IMG/VR virus record: IMGVR_UViG_3300045988_171205
DNA: 33,587 bases
Direction: 5' to 3' (one strand)
DNA from: a virus
Shown here: piece by piece, positions 1 to 33,587 of the stretch
How the letters are laid out: each line of letters starts with the position of its first letter
Numbering within the stretch: the stretch's first letter is position 1
The notes under the pieces: generated by a model
What the model saw: only the letters and a program-made list of their open reading frames with translations
What the model was told of the DNA's origin: nothing
Database searches by the model: none
Translations under genes and position numbers: made by a program

Positions 1-135
1 ATGAAAGAAACATTTAAAGAAAAAGTTGCTAGTGAATTAAGAGCATTTAGAGCAATATGCATAGATATGATTAAAAATGAATCACAACAGACAGGAGGTA
101 TATATGAAAAAACCAGTAAAAAAACTTTCGGCAAG
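1..135 (+). CDS. small early ORF (44 aa), first gene downstream of the PR-like promoter. Its first 55 nt are duplicated at 33533..33587 at the circular junction
   Basis: ATG at 1 (= 33533) lies 5 nt after GGAGGT (33523-33528) and downstream of TTGACT-17-TATAAT. No recognisable domain. Confidence 0.3.
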
Positions 136-360: not shown

Positions 361-642
361 ATGAAAAAGAAAAAAATTAAAGTTATAAATATATTTAAAT
401 TAATTATTTTAGCTGCTTGTTTAGGATTAATAATTTATGATCTTTATATGATATTAATCTATCCTATAGTCAATAAAGTTTTAGTAAATTGGACTATGTT
501 TGGAGGCTTAACATTTTCTTTAGCAGTAATTATTAGTTTAAATATTATAGAGCAAATAAAAAAGTGTGTCCACTCTTCAAAACGACACACTATAAAAAGG
601 CATTCAATTGCTTTTTACATACTTAATTTTATCACAAATTAA
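361..642 (+). CDS. small membrane protein (2-3 predicted TM segments)
   Basis: Hydrophobic stretches IFKLIILAACLGLIIYDLYMILIYPIV and MFGGLTFSLAVIISLNII. Starts 6 nt after the upstream stop. Confidence 0.45.
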   Translation: MKKKKIKVINIFKLIILAACLGLIIYDLYMILIYPIVNKVLVNWTMFGGLTFSLAVIISLNIIEQIKKCVHSSKRHTIKRHSIAFYILNFITN

Positions 643-686
643 TGTATGTGTCAAATCTTTAGTGGGTTTTGGGGAAAGGAAATAGA

Positions 687-9347: not shown

Positions 9348-10208
9348 ATGACTAAAGAAAATCTAAAAGAAAAGAAAAAAGAGTTTATAGAAATGTTAAA
9401 ATTAGAAGAATTGGCTCAAAAAACTCTAGTAAGTTATGAAAATGCAATTGATAAATTCATTGATTTTGTAGATAATGATTTTACTTTAAGTAAGAGTCTA
9501 ATGATTGATTGGAAACATAGTCTAATTGAAAAATATTCAATAAAAAGCAGAAATCAATATATAGTTGTCATTAATAAGTTTTTAAAATTTCTTGGTTATG
9601 GTGATTCTGAAAATAAAGATAAAGATTATAGGATAAAACAATTTAAAGAGCAGTCAAAATCAGTCTTGGAAGAACAGATTGAAATACAAGAACATAAAAG
9701 AATGCTTAGATGGGCTAAAAAAATGAATATGATGGATATGTTCTATATTATTCAAATATTTGCTCATGTAGGTGCCAGAATAGAAGAACTAAAATATTTT
9801 ACTGTTGAAAATCTAGATAGTAATTATATAAAAGGGGCTTATAACAAAGGCAAAGAAAGAGTCCTTATAATGACTAACGAATTAAAGAGGGATCTTAAGC
9901 ACTACTGTAAGGATCATAAAATAAAGAGTGGCTATATCTTTATTAGTCCTGTAAATGAAAATCAAATGTTAAATAATTCTACTATTTGGAGGAGACTAAA
10001 AAAAATAGCAAGAAGTGCAAAAATTAATCCTAAAAAAATCCATCCACATGCTTGGAGACATCTCTTTGCTAAACAATGTAAAGAAAATGGAATTGATTTA
10101 GATGAATTAGCGGATATTTTAGGTCATAAAGATATAAATACAACAGCAATATATACTAAAACCTCAATGAAAGAAAAGAAAAATAAATTAGAAAGGATTA
10201 GATATTAG
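9348..10208 (+). CDS. tyrosine-type site-specific recombinase (XerC/XerD-like, second recombinase in the genome)
   Basis: SAM-like N-terminal domain. Catalytic signature VGARIEEL (R), HPHAWRHLFA (H-x-x-R), LGHKDINTTAIYTK (H...Y). Poor translation signals: a GAAGGGAGGG SD is present but lies 20 nt from the ATG. Confidence 0.8.
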   Translation: MTKENLKEKKKEFIEMLKLEELAQKTLVSYENAIDKFIDFVDNDFTLSKSLMIDWKHSLIEKYSIKSRNQYIVVINKFLKFLGYGDSENKDKDYRIKQFKEQSKSVLEEQIEIQEHKRMLRWAKKMNMMDMFYIIQIFAHVGARIEELKYFTVENLDSNYIKGAYNKGKERVLIMTNELKRDLKHYCKDHKIKSGYIFISPVNENQMLNNSTIWRRLKKIARSAKINPKKIHPHAWRHLFAKQCKENGIDLDELADILGHKDINTTAIYTKTSMKEKKNKLERIRY

Positions 10209-27656: not shown

Positions 27657-27914
27657 ATGGATATTACAACAATTATGACTTTAGTAACAATTTTGGTTAC
27701 TTATGTGTGTGGTTTAATTGCTAAAAAGCATCCTAAATTTAACAATAAATTAATACCAGTGCAAAACTTATTAATAGGTATAATAGTAGCAATTATCAAT
27801 TACATAATGACCAAAGATTTTAATGCTTCGATTATGGTAGCAGGTTTGCTTACTGGTGGAGCATATGATCTTGGAAAAAATATAAATGATTTGTTAAAGA
27901 AAGAAGGTAATTAG
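27657..27914 (+). CDS. holin (phiLC3/SPP1-like small holin)
   Basis: GGAGGTG SD. Two TM segments. Charged C-terminus KNINDLLKKEGN. Precedes the endolysin. Confidence 0.65.
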   Translation: MDITTIMTLVTILVTYVCGLIAKKHPKFNNKLIPVQNLLIGIIVAIINYIMTKDFNASIMVAGLLTGGAYDLGKNINDLLKKEGN

Positions 27915-27982: not shown

Positions 27983-28936
27983 ATGAGTAAGTCAAGTCTA
28001 ACACAAAAAGTAGTACCTGCTGATGAAGGTAACTATACTAAAGGTAGAAGCGGTAGAAACATTGAGGCAATAACCATTCATCATATGGCTGGAAGATTAA
28101 CTGCAGAACAGTGTGGAAGAATATTTCAAGCAAAAGGTAGATATGGCTCTAGTCACTATGGTGTAGGTTATGATGGCAGTATTGCTAATTATGTTGATGA
28201 AGAAGATACCGCTTGGACAAACTCTAATTGGGATAGCAATTGTAAATCAATAACTATCGAAATATCAGACAATGATAATTCATGGTATGTTAACGACATC
28301 ACTCTAAATGCTGTTATTAAATTGGTTGCAGATATTGCTAAGAGAAGAGGACTAAGAACATTAGTACCAGGGAAGAACTTAACTTGGCATAGTATGTTTA
28401 CTAATACCACTTGCCCTGGAGATTATCTAAGAAGTAAAATGCAATATATTGCTGATGAGGCTAACAAAATTAATAATGAAAGTACATCAAATGAAGTCAA
28501 TGTTTATTATATGGCTAGAACTAAAAAGCATGGCTGGTTAAAAGAAGTAAAAAATCTAGAGGATTATGCTGGTTACGAGAATAGTCCTATAACTGGTCTT
28601 GCCATTAAAGTAGATAAAGGCTCTGTTAGATATAGAGTACACATAAAAGAAATTAAAGATAATAATGGAAATATAATAGTTAAAGGAAGATGGCTTCCTT
28701 ATGTTACTGATTATAACATAAAAGATAAGATAAATGGCTATGCTGGTAATGGCAATATAATCGATTGTGTAGAAGTTTACTATTATACTCCTAAAAATAT
28801 TAGACCATACAAAAAAGCTAAATATAAAGTAAATAATTATCCTTATCAATATGATAATGAAAAAACCAAAGGACAAGATGGTTATGCTGGTGTATATGGA
28901 GTAACTGCTACAAAATTTCAGATTATTATAGAATAA
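27983..28936 (+). CDS. endolysin: N-acetylmuramoyl-L-alanine amidase (Amidase_2/PGRP domain) with C-terminal cell-wall-binding region
   Basis: EAITIHHMAG...SSHYGVGYDGSI...NSNCKSITIEI...TWHSMFTNTTCPGDY are Amidase_2 zinc-ligand motifs. About 150-aa C-terminal domain. Confidence 0.8.
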   Translation: MSKSSLTQKVVPADEGNYTKGRSGRNIEAITIHHMAGRLTAEQCGRIFQAKGRYGSSHYGVGYDGSIANYVDEEDTAWTNSNWDSNCKSITIEISDNDNSWYVNDITLNAVIKLVADIAKRRGLRTLVPGKNLTWHSMFTNTTCPGDYLRSKMQYIADEANKINNESTSNEVNVYYMARTKKHGWLKEVKNLEDYAGYENSPITGLAIKVDKGSVRYRVHIKEIKDNNGNIIVKGRWLPYVTDYNIKDKINGYAGNGNIIDCVEVYYYTPKNIRPYKKAKYKVNNYPYQYDNEKTKGQDGYAGVYGVTATKFQIIIE

Positions 28937-28940
28937 AATA

Positions 28941-28975
28941 AAAGAGGAATTTGACTAATGGTCTTTTTCCTCTTT
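28941..28975. terminator. bidirectional terminator hairpin (AAAGAGGAA-17nt-TTCCTCTTT plus T-run) between the convergent endolysin and RHH genes
   Basis: 9-bp stem. T-run on + side, A-run on the other. Confidence 0.55.
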
Positions 28976-29158
28976 TTTTAATTTTCCTCTTTTTAGATAA
29001 TCGAATGCTATTCTAACAAAATCAGATCCAGATAAATTGTGCTTTTTGAGTTCTCTATCAAGATTTTCTTTTTCTTCTTTTTTTAACTCTACTTTAAATT
29101 GTTTATAATTTTCTTTTTTCCAATCTTTGATGTATTCTTTTTGATTAAAATCACTCAT
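28955..29158 (-). CDS. ribbon-helix-helix (CopG/Arc-like) transcriptional regulator
   Basis: Strong SD AGGAGGG 5 nt before ATG. KQFKVELKKEEKENLDRELKKHNLSGSDFVRIAFDYL fits the beta-strand/helix A/G-x-S/T/helix B pattern of RHH proteins. Confidence 0.5.
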   Translation of the reverse strand: MSDFNQKEYIKDWKKENYKQFKVELKKEEKENLDRELKKHNLSGSDFVRIAFDYLKRGKLKKEEKDH

Positions 29159-29187
29159 TTTATCCCTCCTAATATTATTTTACTACA

Positions 29188-29243
29188 TTTAGTACTAAAA
29201 ATCAAGAAAAAGTATTGACATATAGTACTAAATGTGATATAAT
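29188..29243 (+). promoter_or_regulatory. operator-controlled consensus promoter: TTGACA (29215-29220), 17 bp, TGaTATAAT (29235-29243). Two copies of palindromic TAGTACTAAA (29190-29199 and 29223-29232); one perfect 12-bp palindrome TTTAGTACTAAA
   Basis: Direct reading. The second palindrome lies inside the promoter spacer. A divergent minus-strand promoter (TTGATT-17-TAAAAT) overlaps the first palindrome. Confidence 0.6.
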
Positions 29244-29286
29244 TAATATGTAAGATAAAGAAAGAATCTTACAGAAAGGAGAAGTA

Positions 29287-29406
29287 ATGAACAATATAAA
29301 GAAAAAGCCAATTCGTAATTTAACTTTAGCTGAGTGTTACGAATTAGCAAATCAAGGCTATATCTTTATTAAATATAAAAATATAGTTATTGTAGGAAAG
29401 GAGTAA
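29287..29406 (+). CDS. 39-aa peptide expressed from the consensus promoter
   Basis: AAAGGAGAAGTAATG. 3' end overlaps a 10-bp stem hairpin GTAGGAAAGG-8nt-CCTTTTCCTAC. Confidence 0.35.
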   Translation: MNNIKKKPIRNLTLAECYELANQGYIFIKYKNIVIVGKE

Positions 29407-29574
29407 AATCCTTTTCCTACTAAAATTATATAATAGTTCGTTACAAATGTCAAATGAAAAAGATAATTAAAGGGGTAAAATTGGTTTTAGCAATTTATAA
29501 AAATTCAAGTGATAAATATGTTCCTATTTATGATGGTGAATATGTTGTTGATTTTGGAAAGGTGGCTCAATAAT

Positions 29575-30291
29575 ATGGAAAGTAGGGTTACTAGATATTC
29601 CAGAAAAAACAAATTAAAAAGAAAGATGACAAAATTATTTAAGAGTATTTTGAAGAATATGATTTATTTAATAGTTGGGATATTTTCTGCAATGTATTTT
29701 GGATTGAAAGTATTTAATAGATTGATTGAGAAACTATTTAATAAATTGCCTAGAGTAATGAAAGTAGCAATAATCTATTTATTAATTATTAATGTAGGGT
29801 TAGATATTTATAGCATGTTCGGAAAAAATGGCAAAGAAATACAAATATCTTTGAATGATATAAAACTCTCTTCTATACCTACATATATTCCACCAGTTGA
29901 AGAAAAAGAAGAAGTATGTCCTTTTGATAGTATTTCTTGTAAAATATCAGATAAGGGAAAAGAAATAGGTTTAAGCGATGAGCAAATACTAATATCAATT
30001 GCTATTTCTCAGCATGAAACTGGAAACTATACATCTTATGCTTTTAGAGAACTTAATAATGTTGGTGGTATGATGTGCAATAGTGGTTTAAGATCATATG
30101 ATTCACTAGATGATGGCATAGAAGCCTATCTAAATAATTTAAAGTATAATTACTTTGATATAGGATTAGACACTTTAGAAAAAATTCAGCCTAAATATTG
30201 TCCAATAGGAGCCGAAAACGATCCTAAAGGTTTAAATAAATATTGGTTAAGTGGTACTCAAAGGAAATATAATGAATTAATAGGAAAATAA
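29575..30291 (+). CDS. membrane-anchored peptidoglycan hydrolase-like protein (two N-terminal TM helices plus GH73/glucosaminidase-like domain)
   Basis: AISQHETGNYTSYAFRELNNVGGMM...LRSYDSLDDGIEAYLNNLKYNY parallels the AALESGWGxS...NNLFGIK...YxSYxES GH73 signature including the catalytic Glu. Start uncertain (29509 or 29575). Confidence 0.45.
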   Translation: MESRVTRYSRKNKLKRKMTKLFKSILKNMIYLIVGIFSAMYFGLKVFNRLIEKLFNKLPRVMKVAIIYLLIINVGLDIYSMFGKNGKEIQISLNDIKLSSIPTYIPPVEEKEEVCPFDSISCKISDKGKEIGLSDEQILISIAISQHETGNYTSYAFRELNNVGGMMCNSGLRSYDSLDDGIEAYLNNLKYNYFDIGLDTLEKIQPKYCPIGAENDPKGLNKYWLSGTQRKYNELIGK

Positions 30292-30560
30292 ATGAATTTT
30301 TACATCTTATTTACATCTTAAAAAAATATAAAATAATATTATTAAATATCTATTTTAACCTCATTTTATCGCAAAATATAAGGTAATATTATAAAATATA
30401 ATTAAATAATCTATATCTTTATTTTCTCATCACCTGCTCCAAATGAAAATAAACCCTTAAAATATAAGGGTTTTTATTATTTTATATAACTTTTACATCT
30501 TATTTTTTATAATTTTATATAACTTTTACATCTTATTTACATCTTATTTTTTATAATTCT
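30292..30560. other. candidate attP region: direct repeats TTTTACATCTTATTTACATCTTA (30297-30319 and 30524-30546), tandem TTATATAACTTTTACATCTTATTTT copies, and a hairpin AACCCTTA-AAATAT-TAAGGGTT (30454-30475)
   Basis: Repeats read directly. Lies in a noncoding region immediately 3' of the integrase gene. Confidence 0.45.
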
Positions 30561-31627
30561 AATTTATTTAGTCCTTCTGATATTACAAATTTATCGCTTT
30601 CAAATAGATGTGAATATGTTTCTATTACTGTTGTTTCTGTATCTCCAATTCTTGTTGCTACTTGTTTAATTGTGTAGTTCATACTTCTTAAAAGAGTTAC
30701 ATGTGAATGTCTAAACTCGTGAATAGTTATCCTTTTTACATTTGCTTTTTTTATATAACTTTCTTTTTTTCTAGTTATTGTTGTTCTAGATAATGGAACA
30801 ATATCACCGAAGATAAACATTTCATTATTGAATCCATATATTTTTGATTTTTGAATATATAAATCATCTAATAGTTTAATAACATTATTTGGAATATCTA
30901 CTTTTCTATATGAATTACTTGTTTTTGGTGTTGTTATTTTACCACTTTTATTATAGCTCTTATTAATATTTATAATTTTATTGTTATAGTCCTTCCACTT
31001 TAAAGCTTGAAGTTCTCCTATTCTAAGTCCAGCAAAATATAAAAGTGAAAAGAGAGTTTTATATTCTAAATCATCTACCTGATTCATGAATTGTTTATAT
31101 TCATCTAGATTCCATACCTGATATTCTTTTGGTGGTGTTACACCACATTGAATAGTTTTTATTTTATTGAATATTGGTATGTTAAGATCATATATTTCAA
31201 TACCTGTTCTTAAAATAGACTTGAAATAGGTTATTACACTGTTTTGAGTTTTAATATTTAATTTTGAAATATTATTTTTCATTTCTTCAAATTGAATAAT
31301 ACTAATCTTGCTTACCATTGTTTTTTTAAATACTGGCAAGATATGTTTAGTAATTCTATTTTTTGTATTTTCATAGGTTTCCTCTTTATTCTTTTTTTTA
31401 TATTCTTTTAAATATATTAATGTTAATGATTCAAAATCTAAATCTTTTTGTTTTTCATAATTCATTAAAAATGTTCTTTCAGCATCTTGTGCTTCTGCTT
31501 TTGTTAAGAACATTTTAGAAGTCTTTTGTTTTCTACTTCCATTAAGATCATTGTAGTAAGTTCTAAAGTACCAACTTCTACCATCTTTTGAATACTTTTT
31601 TTTATTTTTTTCTTTATAAATTGCCAT
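30551..31627 (-). CDS. int: tyrosine integrase (phage integrase family with N-terminal arm-binding domain)
   Basis: AIYKEKNKKKYSKDGRSWYFRTYY (AP2-like arm-binding N-terminus). GLRIGEL, HEFRHSHVTLL and IETYSH catalytic motifs. Confidence 0.85.
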   Translation of the reverse strand: MAIYKEKNKKKYSKDGRSWYFRTYYNDLNGSRKQKTSKMFLTKAEAQDAERTFLMNYEKQKDLDFESLTLIYLKEYKKKNKEETYENTKNRITKHILPVFKKTMVSKISIIQFEEMKNNISKLNIKTQNSVITYFKSILRTGIEIYDLNIPIFNKIKTIQCGVTPPKEYQVWNLDEYKQFMNQVDDLEYKTLFSLLYFAGLRIGELQALKWKDYNNKIININKSYNKSGKITTPKTSNSYRKVDIPNNVIKLLDDLYIQKSKIYGFNNEMFIFGDIVPLSRTTITRKKESYIKKANVKRITIHEFRHSHVTLLRSMNYTIKQVATRIGDTETTVIETYSHLFESDKFVISEGLNKLEL

Positions 31628-31732
31628 TTTTTAACCTCCAATTATTTACATATTTATTTGTTTTTGATATAATTAGAGTGCATAGAAAAAAAGATTGTCT
31701 GTTGTGATTCAATTTTATTTTTATGCACTATT

Positions 31733-31765
31733 CTAGTACCTATTGCAGTAGGTACTAGTTTTTTT
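31733..31765 (+). terminator. hairpin CTAGTACCTA-TTGCAG-TAGGTACTAG followed by T7 between the exonuclease gene and int
   Basis: Perfect 10-bp stem. Orientation of the T-run is + strand; may act bidirectionally. Confidence 0.4.
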
Positions 31766-32684
31766 AATTTAATTCTTCAATTATCTCTCCAGTGTTTTCA
31801 TCCATAATTACAATTTTTTTCTTTTGTGTTGAATTTAAATATAATTGATATACTTTTGAACAAGTTTCACAATCATCTAAAGCCCTATGAGAATCATAAT
31901 TTAATCCTAAATACTCTTTTAGTGTAGCTAATTTATAATTTTCAATACTTTCTCTTGGAATGATTCTTTTTGCTAAGGTAACAGTGTCAATTATTTTATT
32001 ATTACATAATTCTTTTTTATTTCTATAACATTCACTTGCTAACATTTTAATATCATAAGGTGCATTATGTGCCACTAAAGTTAAATCTTCAATAAAATCA
32101 AAAAATTGTGGTATTACTTCATTAATAGTAGGTTTGTCTTTTAAATCTTCTTGTTTTATGCCTGTTAACTGTGTTATAAATGGATTTATTACTTCTTTCG
32201 GATTAATTAGTGTAGAAAAAGTTTCTACTTTTTTATTATCAATAAATTTAATAGCAGATATTTCTATTATTTTGTCACAACTTGGATCTAATCCAGTAGT
32301 CTCTGTATCAAATACGACATAATCCTTAACAATTTTATTTGTTCTTCTTTTTGTATAAGAATCATACCATACAGCTTCTGGAACAAAGTTTCTTTCAATT
32401 TTATCTAAAAGTGAGTTCCCACATTTTGTGCAGAATTTGTTTTCTCTTTTGTTTTTTTCACCACAATACATACATATTTTAAATTTTGTATAATCTATTT
32501 CTTCTTTTATACTAATAATTTTAAATATATCTATTATCCATCCTATACAAAAAAGTCCGCATGTACAAAAATAAAGAATTCCTAGTCCAATTTTTTTATT
32601 ATAAAAATGATGTAATCCAAACCATCCTCCGAGAACACATAATATTAATGAAACTTCTTTATTTTTAATTTTATAATTTATCAT
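31764..32684 (-). CDS. TM2-domain membrane protein fused to zinc ribbon and DEDDh 3'-5' exonuclease (DnaQ/epsilon-like) domain
   Basis: GGWFGLHHFYNKKIGLGILYFCTCGLFCIGWIIDIF is TM2-like. CMYCGEKN...CTKCGN is a zinc ribbon. Exo I is VVFDTETTGLD, Exo II VAHNAPYDIKML, Exo III YDSHRALDDCE. Start overlaps the ImmA stop by 14 nt. Confidence 0.65.
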   Translation of the reverse strand: MINYKIKNKEVSLILCVLGGWFGLHHFYNKKIGLGILYFCTCGLFCIGWIIDIFKIISIKEEIDYTKFKICMYCGEKNKRENKFCTKCGNSLLDKIERNFVPEAVWYDSYTKRRTNKIVKDYVVFDTETTGLDPSCDKIIEISAIKFIDNKKVETFSTLINPKEVINPFITQLTGIKQEDLKDKPTINEVIPQFFDFIEDLTLVAHNAPYDIKMLASECYRNKKELCNNKIIDTVTLAKRIIPRESIENYKLATLKEYLGLNYDSHRALDDCETCSKVYQLYLNSTQKKKIVIMDENTGEIIEELN

Positions 32685-33461: not shown

Positions 33462-33512
33462 ATGTTTTTTTGCATTTTTAGTATTGACTTCTGCAAAAAA
33501 ACATAGTATAAT
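33462..33512 (+). promoter_or_regulatory. early rightward promoter TTGACT (33484-33489), 17 bp, TATAAT (33507-33512), flanked by a perfect 13-bp inverted repeat ATGTTTTTTTGCA (33462-33474) / TGCAAAAAAACAT (33492-33504). Related half-site GCATAAAAACAT at 33431-33442
   Basis: Direct reading. The second operator copy overlaps the spacer and -10. Confidence 0.6.
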
Positions 33513-33532: not shown

Positions 33533-33587
33533 ATGAAAGAAACATTTAAAGAAAAAGTTGCTAGTGAATTAAGAGCATTTAGAGCAA
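33533..33587. repeat. 55-bp exact duplicate of positions 1..55 (assembly overlap of a circular molecule)
   Basis: Base-for-base identity read directly. Confidence 0.9.

Follow-up and report, generated by a model that had tools for sequence, protein, structure and literature searches.

A putative portable accessory cassette, in which two layers of negative control would restrain a cell-wall-breaching payload, was recognized in the viral record IMGVR_UViG_3300045988_171205 (33,587 nt; "the window" hereafter denotes this entire stretch of DNA). We assign this reading a probability of roughly 45%. The cassette spans 28955-30445, with the amidase endolysin on one side and the integrase on the other, a place between the lysis and lysogeny modules. 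It encodes four proteins: a putative CopG-like ribbon-helix-helix (RHH) repressor on the minus strand and, on the plus strand, two small proteins (the products of pepA and pepB) and a membrane-anchored hydrolase with a predicted GH73 fold. A structured RNA antisense to pepA is also predicted. A first-pass annotation, made from the sequence of the window, had described a self-contained cassette under its own repressor-operator control with a membrane-anchored GH73-like payload, and this core reading holds. All elements it listed are present in the sequence, and chance is excluded: perfect TTGACA-N17-TATAAT promoters occur twice in the whole window, facing each other, against 0.03 expected, and the arrangement recurs in diverged loci. 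It had missed pepB, the antisense promoter, and the antisense RNA. As judged by comparison with known systems, the combination of control resembling that of P22 immI with a VirB1-like GH73 enzyme is well supported.

Conservation of the Cassette and Its Two Types

Homologues of the hydrolase numbered 331 at E ≤ 1e-3 in a set of 5.8 billion proteins, and a representative library yielded 66 matches at E < 1e-30 and 2086 at E < 1e-3. On every long contig the genes follow the order endolysin, RHH (minus strand), pepA, pepB, hydrolase, and the cassette is kept as one unit in hundreds of gut phages, diverged ones included. It co-occurs with Amidase_2, Amidase_3, and LysM-containing endolysins and sits at a prophage end by host genes, or by a serine recombinase instead of the tyrosine integrase. 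Related loci stem from metagenome-assembled genomes labelled Bacilli or Erysipelotrichaceae, with human gut and ruminants as sources. The possibility raised in the first-pass annotation that the region merely extends the late operon is excluded by the hairpin and T-run behind the endolysin, the RHH gene on the opposite strand, and the travel of the cassette among phages with different endolysins and recombinases. Its private promoter and operators likewise set it apart from a phage lysis cassette within the late operon. No match to the region emerged from megablast against 50,697 phage records, and what tblastn returned from Erysipelothrix phage SE-1 and from unverified Listeria phage records amounted to short, unannotated, and uninformative fragments.

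Besides this long type, a short type occurs at four loci (L022, L036, L042, and L043) and at the distant locus L051, where it stands behind an Amidase_3 endolysin. In these loci the endolysin terminator is followed by a strong operator-bearing promoter, pepB with a good ribosome-binding site, and the hydrolase gene. The RHH gene, pepA, and the antisense promoter (P_anti) are absent, which marks pepB and the hydrolase as the core. As far as these layouts indicate, the RHH gene, pepA, hairpin, and P_anti are an add-on control block. The 5' hairpin of the cargo transcript is kept in three of the four short-type loci (GTAAGA...TCTTAC in L022 and L043; ATAAGA...TCTTAG in L036). In L036 and L051, pepB and the hydrolase gene are further separated by one or two additional tiny ORFs (28 aa; a 59-aa transmembrane protein with several Cys).

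Variant alleles were found in both the control region and the payload. Locus L039 has lost RHH, carries a frameshift in pepA, and has a -10 box weakened to TATGCT, with P_anti and its terminator, pepB, and the hydrolase gene retained. Truncated hydrolases include P0038 (149 aa, 19 members) and P0067 (premature stop at 138 aa), and P0003 carries an in-frame deletion of residues 86-127. Together with the predicted double negative control, the truncated alleles and L039 suggest that expression must be limited. The absence of a local repressor from the short type argues against outright lethality of the hydrolase.

The Putative Repressor, Its Operators, and the Divergent Promoters

The RHH assignment made for the 67-aa minus-strand protein in the first-pass annotation is supported, with profile matches that are each weak alone and all point to an RHH fold. 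The RHH homology that a profile search was expected to find came up below threshold, as RHH_1 at 12.4 bits against a cut-off of 20.5 (E 0.16), alongside a NikA-like profile (E 0.029) and the PHROG 'transcriptional repressor' (E 9e-4). The best cassette relative matches RHH_1 at E 7.5e-5, five homologues have a precomputed match to PF10723 (RepB-RCR_reg, CopG-like), and the family profile retrieved the RHH protein ORF56 of pRN1 as its top hit in the PDB (E 0.0045). Predicted secondary structure comprises a beta-strand, KQFKVELK (residues 19-26), and helices at ~27-39 and 44-57. Foldseek searches with the monomer model (pLDDT 70) placed CopG-DNA complexes in the top four positions, at E ~1.

Stronger evidence for the assignment comes from co-variation of the protein with its predicted target. 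Five beta-strand variants pair one-to-one with five operator variants, with the -35 and -10 boxes fixed: KQFKVEL with TAGTACTAAATGT, KQFKVYL with AGTAGTACTACTT, KIFKADL with CGTACGGTTG, KSFRVDL with TGTACGATATGTG, and KTFKVDL with TTAGTACGAA. Each operator motif occurs twice per locus, once per promoter spacer. Such co-variation is, for a predicted binding, the look of a specific repressor-operator pair under diversifying selection.

In the window, the two palindromic operators that had been noted about 33 bp apart (O1 and O2) were confirmed as part of a 15-nt direct repeat with 33-bp spacing. Without mismatch, TAGTACTAAA occurs in the 33.6 kb only at 29188-29199 and 29223-29232, i.e., in the spacers of the two divergent promoters. 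Action of RHH at other phage promoters was considered and rejected, given that the genome holds no further operator copies. The promoter TTGACA-17-TGaTATAAT (P_cargo), recognized earlier as a textbook example, indeed matches consensus at 12 of 12 positions; its hexamers are conserved in all loci, and its spacer varies. A 29-nt inverted repeat spans both divergent promoters, making P_rhh the mirror image of P_cargo; equivalents of P_rhh read TTGATT-17-TATAAT in L009 and TTGTTT-17-TATAAT in L006. Because a GTAC-centered palindrome occupies the 17-nt spacer of both back-to-back promoters, an RHH dimer should repress P_cargo as well as its own promoter. The cargo mRNA would begin with a stem-loop (GUAAGA...UCUUAC) that may act as an mRNA stabilizer; apart from the L036 variant given above, its arms are invariant across long-type and short-type loci.

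pepA and the Predicted Antisense RNA

The 39-aa ORF reported downstream of P_cargo, here named pepA, is a genuine coding sequence by comparative criteria. Pairwise differences by codon position amount to 349/293/668, the excess at third positions indicating translation, and the ORF spans 39-41 codons throughout. Its product is hydrophilic and Lys-rich, with no transmembrane segment or hydrophobic stretch. Profile searches against PDB, Pfam, and PHROGs gave only chance-level matches and no RHH similarity.

A second perfect promoter, P_anti, faces P_cargo at a distance of 181 bp. It sits in the 47-nt gap between pepA and pepB, its -35 box abutting the pepB start codon, and is present in all 14 distinct long-type loci with an invariant -10 box, a fixed 17-nt spacing, and a diverged spacer sequence. 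Transcription from P_anti should yield a cis-antisense RNA of three stem-loops, a layer of control added here to the earlier reading and predicted from sequence and comparison. The predicted start (~29418) is the first base of the complement of the hairpin at the pepA stop codon, and pairing with pepA begins 12-13 nt after its AUG. About 120 nt downstream of P_anti lies a terminator whose U-tract is encoded by pepA Lys codons.

Covariation among ten diverged sequences is consistent with this structure: 96.1% of cells are paired, 11 pairs are compensated, and 0 of 500 shuffles scored as well, counts that represent non-independent events inasmuch as the compared loci are related, a point that weakens the case. 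Controls slid along the alignment gave 34-45% pairing. In the two helices nearest the terminator, 257 of 260 cells are canonical under the antisense reading, compared with 234 of 260 under the sense reading. Over all three helices, 33 G.U cells are valid only as antisense (23 of them in the two terminator-proximal helices) and 5 only as sense, all within the 5' stem-loop. This asymmetry indicates that selection acts on the minus-strand transcript. A search of 28800-30700 against Rfam at a permissive E-value returned no family.

The hairpin that the first-pass annotation had placed at the end of the 39-aa ORF exists, with the stop codon in its loop and compensatory changes in L035, and is the mirror image of the 5' stem-loop that the antisense RNA forms; with no U-run in the sense direction, it does not qualify as a sense-strand terminator. 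Sense-strand transcription attenuation at this site was rejected on the same ground. A role for its 3' arm as an anti-ribosome-binding site for the hydrolase was also discarded: there is no covariation, and L035 changes the hairpin arm with the ribosome-binding site unchanged. The conserved terminator ~120 nt downstream likewise led to rejection of the antisense transcript as the RHH mRNA.

A Predicted Membrane-Anchored Glucosaminidase and Its Micro-Protein Partner

The first-pass annotation had begun the hydrolase at GTG 29509, giving 260 aa. This gene model was revised to the 238 aa starting at ATG 29575, since homologues are 238-254 aa long, with their called starts at the ATG corresponding to this one; the 66 nt (22 codons) gained from the GTG start overlap pepB in another frame. 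The protein comprises a basic N-terminus, hydrophobic helices at 28-47 and 63-82, a disordered acidic linker (84-111), and a catalytic domain (113-238). A structural model (mean pLDDT 82) shows a long helix at 4-57, a helix at 60-82, and pLDDT > 90 over 113-238. The earlier description as a two-TM protein stands insofar as two hydrophobic helices are present, and is better phrased as helices without assigned topology.

Sequence and model comparisons support the payload as a membrane-tethered N-acetylglucosaminidase of the GH73 fold, its activity being predicted. The match to Glucosaminidase (PF01832) that had been expected fell short of the gathering threshold, at 22.7 bits (E 1.7e-4) against 30.2; among relatives, P0230 has an unmarked match and an S. 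aureus plasmid homologue reaches 39 bits. The GH73 reading is further supported by the GH73 domain of Ecd09610 (8yxk), which the catalytic domain matches at E 3e-11 with phmmer, 1.3e-15 with the family profile, and 2e-6 with Foldseek. The top Foldseek hits of the model were 8yxk, LytB (7pj3/7pj4), Auto (3fi7), AtlE (4pi9), and AtlA (7qfu). Glu148, in an HETGN motif, is invariant in 38 sequences and occupies the same alignment position as the Glu in IHETGN of 8yxk and in SESNWG of a conjugation homologue, in agreement with the catalytic Glu of the GH73 signature noted earlier; we take this position to be the proton donor. Four family-specific Cys (C115, C122, C168, and C209) are invariant as well. 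As the phage holds no GH73-domain paralogue elsewhere, the payload is not a copy of a tail lysin.

By sequence, the nearest annotated relatives appear to be membrane-anchored wall hydrolases of Gram-positive conjugation systems. The hydrolase matched 569 plasmid records, of which 349 are conjugative. A protein in the TrsG position of a Macrococcus trs conjugation operon shares 29% identity over 212 aa, anchor included (E 5e-17), and an S. aureus relative is a glucosaminidase+CHAP protein beside TcpE-family, ATPase, and other transfer genes. The catalytic core also occurs in ~200-250-aa proteins with a single N-terminal anchor or signal peptide and in very large tail-type proteins. Some single-anchor relatives (L053-L056) lie among many small genes in the early/replication regions of unrelated phages, outside lysis cassettes; membrane-anchored glucosaminidases outside lysis modules may be a wider phage theme. 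Other single-anchor relatives whose surroundings were inspected mostly sit on short contigs.

The orientation of the catalytic domain was weighed from charge and kinship. Net charge is +10 at the N-terminus, +3 in the loop separating the two hydrophobic helices, and -1 in the linker behind them. Were both helices to span the membrane, the catalytic domain would be cytoplasmic. The strongly basic N-terminus and two helices modelled as a hairpin make this the simplest topology, which contradicts an outward-facing domain. The single-anchor and signal-peptide relatives and the conjugation enzymes, on the other side, all place the domain outside, and the linker of the hydrolase is acidic. We consider it probable that the domain faces outward, in which case only one hydrophobic helix would fully span. 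That topology would leave the conserved basic N-terminal motif RVxRYSKKNRxKR and the pepB product together in the cytoplasm, as candidates for interaction.

The hydrolase gene has a constant companion in pepB. This ORF is retained in every locus examined, with an in-frame indel, and its codon-position changes (993/761/1443) again indicate translation by their third-position excess. Many assemblies call it as a stand-alone gene of 38-43 aa, and it is never fused. It accompanies all family members seen with the basic N-terminus and is absent upstream of the one single-anchor relative checked (n=1). Profile searches against PDB, Pfam, and PHROGs gave only chance-level matches. In the long type, the -35 box of P_anti has replaced the pepB ribosome-binding site (...AAAGTCAA directly before ATG); the short type reads AAAGGAGG-N7-ATG.

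Proposed Mechanism and Alternatives

In the reading to which we give about 45%, RHH bound at O2 and O1 would occlude both divergent promoters. P_anti has no operator control, so the antisense RNA would be made constitutively, and it may clear leaky transcripts, whether by forming a duplex with them, by leading to their cleavage, or by blocking the translation of pepA. The P_cargo transcript would carry the 5' stem-loop, then pepA, pepB, and the hydrolase; because long-type pepB lacks a ribosome-binding site, translation of pepB and the hydrolase would depend on ribosomes arriving from pepA. Once de-repressed, P_cargo could transcribe across P_anti and occlude it, so that the two layers might provide a tight OFF state and a sharp switch to ON. 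The cassette would be OFF in an established lysogen and fire when RHH is absent or inactivated, most plausibly in a burst immediately upon entry of the genome into a host that lacks a cassette with matching operator specificity, by analogy with P22 immI. The outward catalytic domain would then cut glycan strands of the innermost wall layer by the membrane, and the pepB product may engage the conserved basic N-terminus of the hydrolase from within the cytoplasm.

Several points weigh against this scheme. The promoters, antisense RNA, and repression are predicted from sequence and conservation. The RHH protein of the window stays under the Pfam thresholds, and its low-confidence monomer model shows both helices but a helix where the beta-strand is expected. 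P_anti is as strong as P_cargo and could blunt an entry burst, the pepA stop lies 47 nt before the pepB start, far for re-initiation, and no RHH-inactivating signal is known. Tight local gating is, moreover, not universal, in that the short type keeps a strong promoter without RHH, pepA, or antisense RNA. In our ranking, a gated transient wall breach on entry or de-repression stands ahead of a suicide or addiction module, which in turn ranks ahead of dose-controlled conversion or exclusion and then a holin-dependent accessory lysin.

An unlikely alternative, although the first of these, is a suicide-type module for abortive infection or prophage addiction, with the hydrolase as a toxin that a labile antisense RNA and the repressor would restrain. 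Upon shut-off of host transcription by another phage, or upon prophage loss, the stabilized mRNA would outlive its inhibitors, the wall would be damaged, and the cell would die; the pepB product would be the cognate inhibitor or immunity factor. Two negative regulators on a wall-degrading enzyme would suit such a module, as would the prophage-end location typical of defense cargo, the truncated alleles, and the weakened promoter that goes with RHH loss. The diversified operator specificities resemble immunity systems, and the 5' stabilizer hairpin, leader ORF, and strongly promoted cis-antisense RNA match the design logic of hok/sok. However, the short type drives pepB and the hydrolase strongly with no adjacent repressor or antisense RNA, which is hard to square with a lethal product. 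None of the four proteins matched a PADLOC model at E up to 1, and their NCBIfam searches yielded no meaningful match. Lability of the antisense RNA or of the RHH protein is without support, and pepB has no detectable relation to known inhibitors.

More speculative, and doubtful as a whole, is a composite in which repressor and antisense gating (type II plus type I logic), a conjugation-derived tethered glucosaminidase, and control by the pepB product from the cytoplasmic side form a conditional self-wounding module. Such a module would serve the phages of gut Bacilli in abortive infection, in prophage addiction, or in opening the wall for non-lytic envelope crossing.

Less likely again is a function in lysogenic conversion or superinfection exclusion. 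Here the prophage would express the cassette at a low steady level, with the regulators only setting the dose, and the tethered enzyme would remodel the inner wall or bind peptidoglycan, altering cell separation or turnover or blocking phage entry. The classic moron position with its own sigma-A-type promoter and terminators, the strong promoter of short-type cassettes, and strong purifying selection over hundreds of phages are in keeping with this view. Yet a perfect, operator-occluded promoter and an antisense RNA point to OFF rather than to steady expression, and the invariant catalytic Glu points to catalysis rather than mere binding. A literature search found no known exclusion protein with a GH73 domain and no precedent for prophage membrane-anchored GH73 proteins or exclusion hydrolases.

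We give still less credence to an accessory role in lysis, whereby a second lysin held as an N-in/C-in hairpin reaches the wall after the holin permeabilizes the membrane. The cassette always adjoins an XhlA-like/holin/amidase cassette, the modelled helical hairpin and the N-terminal net charge of +10 favor C-in, and a glycosidase would complement the amidase. A small protein encoded just upstream of the lysin is also known from mycobacteriophage Ms6 (Gp1-LysA), an arrangement that pepB recalls. Nevertheless, a terminator and an opposite-strand gene separate the unit from the endolysin, and its promoter is of host type under a private repressor rather than a late promoter. Single-anchor and signal-peptide relatives place the domain outside, relatives are also encoded within conjugation operons and the early regions of other phages, and the existence of truncated alleles shows the enzyme to be dispensable. 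Finally, a stand-alone type I toxin-antitoxin system made up of pepA and the antisense RNA, with no relation to the hydrolase operon downstream of it, is very improbable: the small ORF is fully overlapped by a structured cis-antisense RNA, but its hydrophilic product has no transmembrane segment, in contrast to the small hydrophobic membrane toxins of such pairs, it shares promoter and mRNA with pepB and the hydrolase, L039 keeps P_anti and its terminator with pepA frameshifted, and insertion of the block removed the pepB ribosome-binding site, which ties the block to downstream expression.

Relation to Known Systems

At immI of Salmonella phage P22, two protein repressors and the sar RNA control ant (PMC2629481). 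The cassette resembles this 'ant moron' (mnt, arc, ant, sar) as an independently expressed insert near the end of the late genes, with a divergent RHH repressor (there Mnt) and an operator at back-to-back promoters. The succession of a small first gene, an antisense RNA from a promoter inside the operon (here a predicted transcript), and a payload is likewise shared. In contrast, the payload is a membrane-anchored wall hydrolase with a 39-aa partner rather than an antirepressor, the antisense RNA would cover the leader ORF rather than the payload ribosome-binding site, and the host is Gram-positive; with no sequence homology, the likeness is architectural only. pepA has no RHH similarity, so that no Arc-like second repressor is established. 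This and the hydrolase payload make the cassette immI-like in layout, not a member of immI.

The proposed role of VirB1-like conjugation enzymes is to breach the wall locally, working from the membrane, so that the channel can be assembled (PMC11753425). The cassette hydrolase shares with those of Gram-positive systems (TrsG/TraG of pSK41-like trs operons, TcpG of pCW3, CwlT, and PrgK) an N-terminal anchor followed by a glycosidase domain of the same subfamily, including the ESxWG / HETGN Glu and a KY(A/C)P(I/V)GA.NDP..LN..W motif. It differs in possessing a single catalytic domain with no CHAP, NlpC/P60, or M23 partner domain, and in adding the basic N-terminus, a second hydrophobic helix, the four family-specific Cys, and a micro-protein partner. 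Secretion-system genes are absent near the cassette.

The isolated GH73 domain of Clostridioides difficile Ecd09610 was shown to be lytic (PMC9405191). At 34% identity, this domain (8yxk) is the closest solved structure to that of the cassette hydrolase; a literature search on 8YXK found nothing. Ecd09610 and CWH of phage phiMMP01 differ from the cassette hydrolase in being large, soluble lysins with two domains, associated with tails or prophages, and in lacking its membrane anchor, its C-x6-C motif, and Cys168/Cys209.

Plasmid copy control also pairs a repressor with a countertranscript, as in pMV158 (CopG and RNAII), pIP501 (CopR and RNAIII), and R1 (CopB and CopA, with tap). A CopG-type RHH repressor and a ~100-nt structured cis-antisense RNA on the same operon would be common to these plasmids and the cassette. 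The non-significant best fold matches of the RHH model (E ~1) are to CopG, and relatives match RepB-RCR_reg. The leader-peptide logic recalls tap/repA, with translational coupling of pepA to the downstream genes presumed; the target in the cassette, however, is not a replication initiator. Type I systems of the hok/sok type feature a stable structured mRNA, a leader ORF, and a strongly promoted short cis-antisense RNA. The cassette would share these three elements, but its effector is a 238-aa enzyme instead of a small hydrophobic peptide, and a protein repressor is added.

The cassette is widespread, being found in hundreds of phages and prophages whose hosts are uncultured low-GC Bacilli of gut and rumen, yet none of its four proteins is informatively named in databases. 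Its control region would be a compact, portable regulatory device with five orthogonal operator specificities, facing perfect promoters, a leader ORF, and a structured antisense RNA, a putative Gram-positive counterpart of P22 immI that could become a synthetic-biology part. The payload appears to be a conjugation-type, membrane-anchored wall-breaching enzyme taken up by phages outside both the lysis cassette and the virion, which raises the question of why a temperate phage would nick the wall from inside under strict control. pepB, in turn, constitutes a conserved micro-protein family with a defined partner.

Genome Setting and Additional Features

A 55-bp direct repeat at both ends of the window (1-55 and 33533-33587) identifies it as a circularly assembled, complete phage genome of ~33.5 kb, with a GC content of 26.9%. 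The genome encodes a replication initiator, terminase, portal, major head protein, tape-measure protein, and tail protein. Together with the lysis genes, the integrase, and an XRE repressor, this content denotes a temperate siphovirus-type phage. The amidase assignment of the endolysin made in the first-pass annotation is correct, and the XhlA-like protein ahead of the holin makes the lysis cassette one of PBSX type (xhlA, holin, amidase). Right of the integrase follow a TM2/zinc-ribbon/exonuclease fusion, an ImmA-like protease, and the XRE repressor. Coordinates are collected in Table 1.

Table 1. Features of the cassette and adjoining genes, in window coordinates
Feature	Position	Strand	Remarks
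XhlA-like coiled-coil protein with C-terminal transmembrane segment	27348-27644	+	PHROG 937 ('hemolysin'-like), E 1.6e-9; 5' of holin
Holin	27657-27914		lysis cassette
Amidase_2 endolysin	27983-28936		stop at 28936
Hairpin with T/A runs, AAAGAGGAA...TTCCTCTTTTTTT	28940-28982		between endolysin stop (28936) and 3' end of RHH gene
CopG-like RHH repressor (putative), 67 aa	28955-29158	-	weak concordant RHH profile matches; strand/operator co-variation
P_rhh (predicted), TTGATT-17-TAAAAT	29177-29205	-	leftward, weaker; 9/12 consensus match; O1 in spacer
Operator O1 (predicted), perfect palindrome TTTAGTACTAAA	29188-29199		in P_rhh spacer
P_cargo (predicted), TTGACA (29215-29220)-17-TATAAT (29238-29243)	29215-29243	+	12/12; extended -10, TG at 29235-36
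Operator O2 (predicted), TATAGTACTAAA	29221-29232		in P_cargo spacer; center 33 bp from O1 center
5'-terminal stem-loop of cargo mRNA, GUAAGA...UCUUAC	29250-29272	+	starts at predicted transcription start
pepA, 39-aa hydrophilic leader ORF	29287-29406	+	strong ribosome-binding site; in all long-type loci
Antisense terminator (predicted), 12-bp stem (29307-29348), then UUUUUCUUUAU (29306-29296)	29296-29348	-	helix 3, 99.2% paired
Predicted cis-antisense RNA, ~120 nt, three stem-loops	29300-29418	-	complementary to pepA codons 5-39 and stop-codon hairpin
Hairpin with pepA stop codon in loop	29392-29420		antisense 5' stem-loop read on other strand
P_anti (predicted), TTGACA (29453-29448)-17-TATAAT (29430-29425)	29425-29453	-	12/12; faces P_cargo
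pepB, 39 aa	29454-29573	+	stop one base before hydrolase ATG
Membrane-anchored GH73-fold glucosaminidase (predicted activity), 238 aa	29575-30291	+	ATG start
Conserved cassette 3' untranslated part	30292-30441	+	ends at recombination junction ...CACCTGCTCCA
Bidirectional intrinsic terminator	30451-30473		between cassette and integrase gene
Tyrosine integrase	30551-31627	-	right of cassette

The hairpin behind the endolysin probably acts as a bidirectional terminator that insulates the cassette from the late operon. It escaped a simple scan because its loop exceeds 8 nt, and L006 and L009 have a different hairpin and T-run at the equivalent position. At the other end, homology to close relatives stops sharply at ~30441 (...CACCTGCTCCA), where different lysogeny modules start. 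Past this breakpoint, L003 and L047 have serine-recombinase lysogeny modules in place of the tyrosine integrase, and the relatives each have their own terminator-like hairpin just after the junction. Direct repeats of 26 nt (AAyTTTTACATCTTATTTACATCTTA, at 30295-30320 and 30521-30546) bracket a 200-bp segment with the bidirectional terminator, and a 38-nt repeat family (30480-30561) adjoins the integrase stop. In L031, which has the same integrase as the window, exactly 30321-30520 is missing. These repeats (30295-30561) could be integrase arm sites or a recombination hotspot.

Farther from the cassette, the fusion right of the integrase (31764-32684, minus strand) is a 306-aa protein with an N-terminal TM2 membrane domain, a zinc ribbon, and a DEDDh (RNase_T) exonuclease, an unusual membrane-anchored nuclease that could serve exclusion or defense. 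A second tyrosine-recombinase-like gene (9348-10208, plus strand; PHROG integrase, E 2e-32) lies mid-genome, upstream of the packaging genes and far from the att-side integrase. Other near-consensus (11/12) promoters were located at 31645-31673 (+), 626-654 (-), 544-572 (-), and 33484-33512 (+), the last of which adjoins the XRE repressor gene and is a candidate early lytic promoter.

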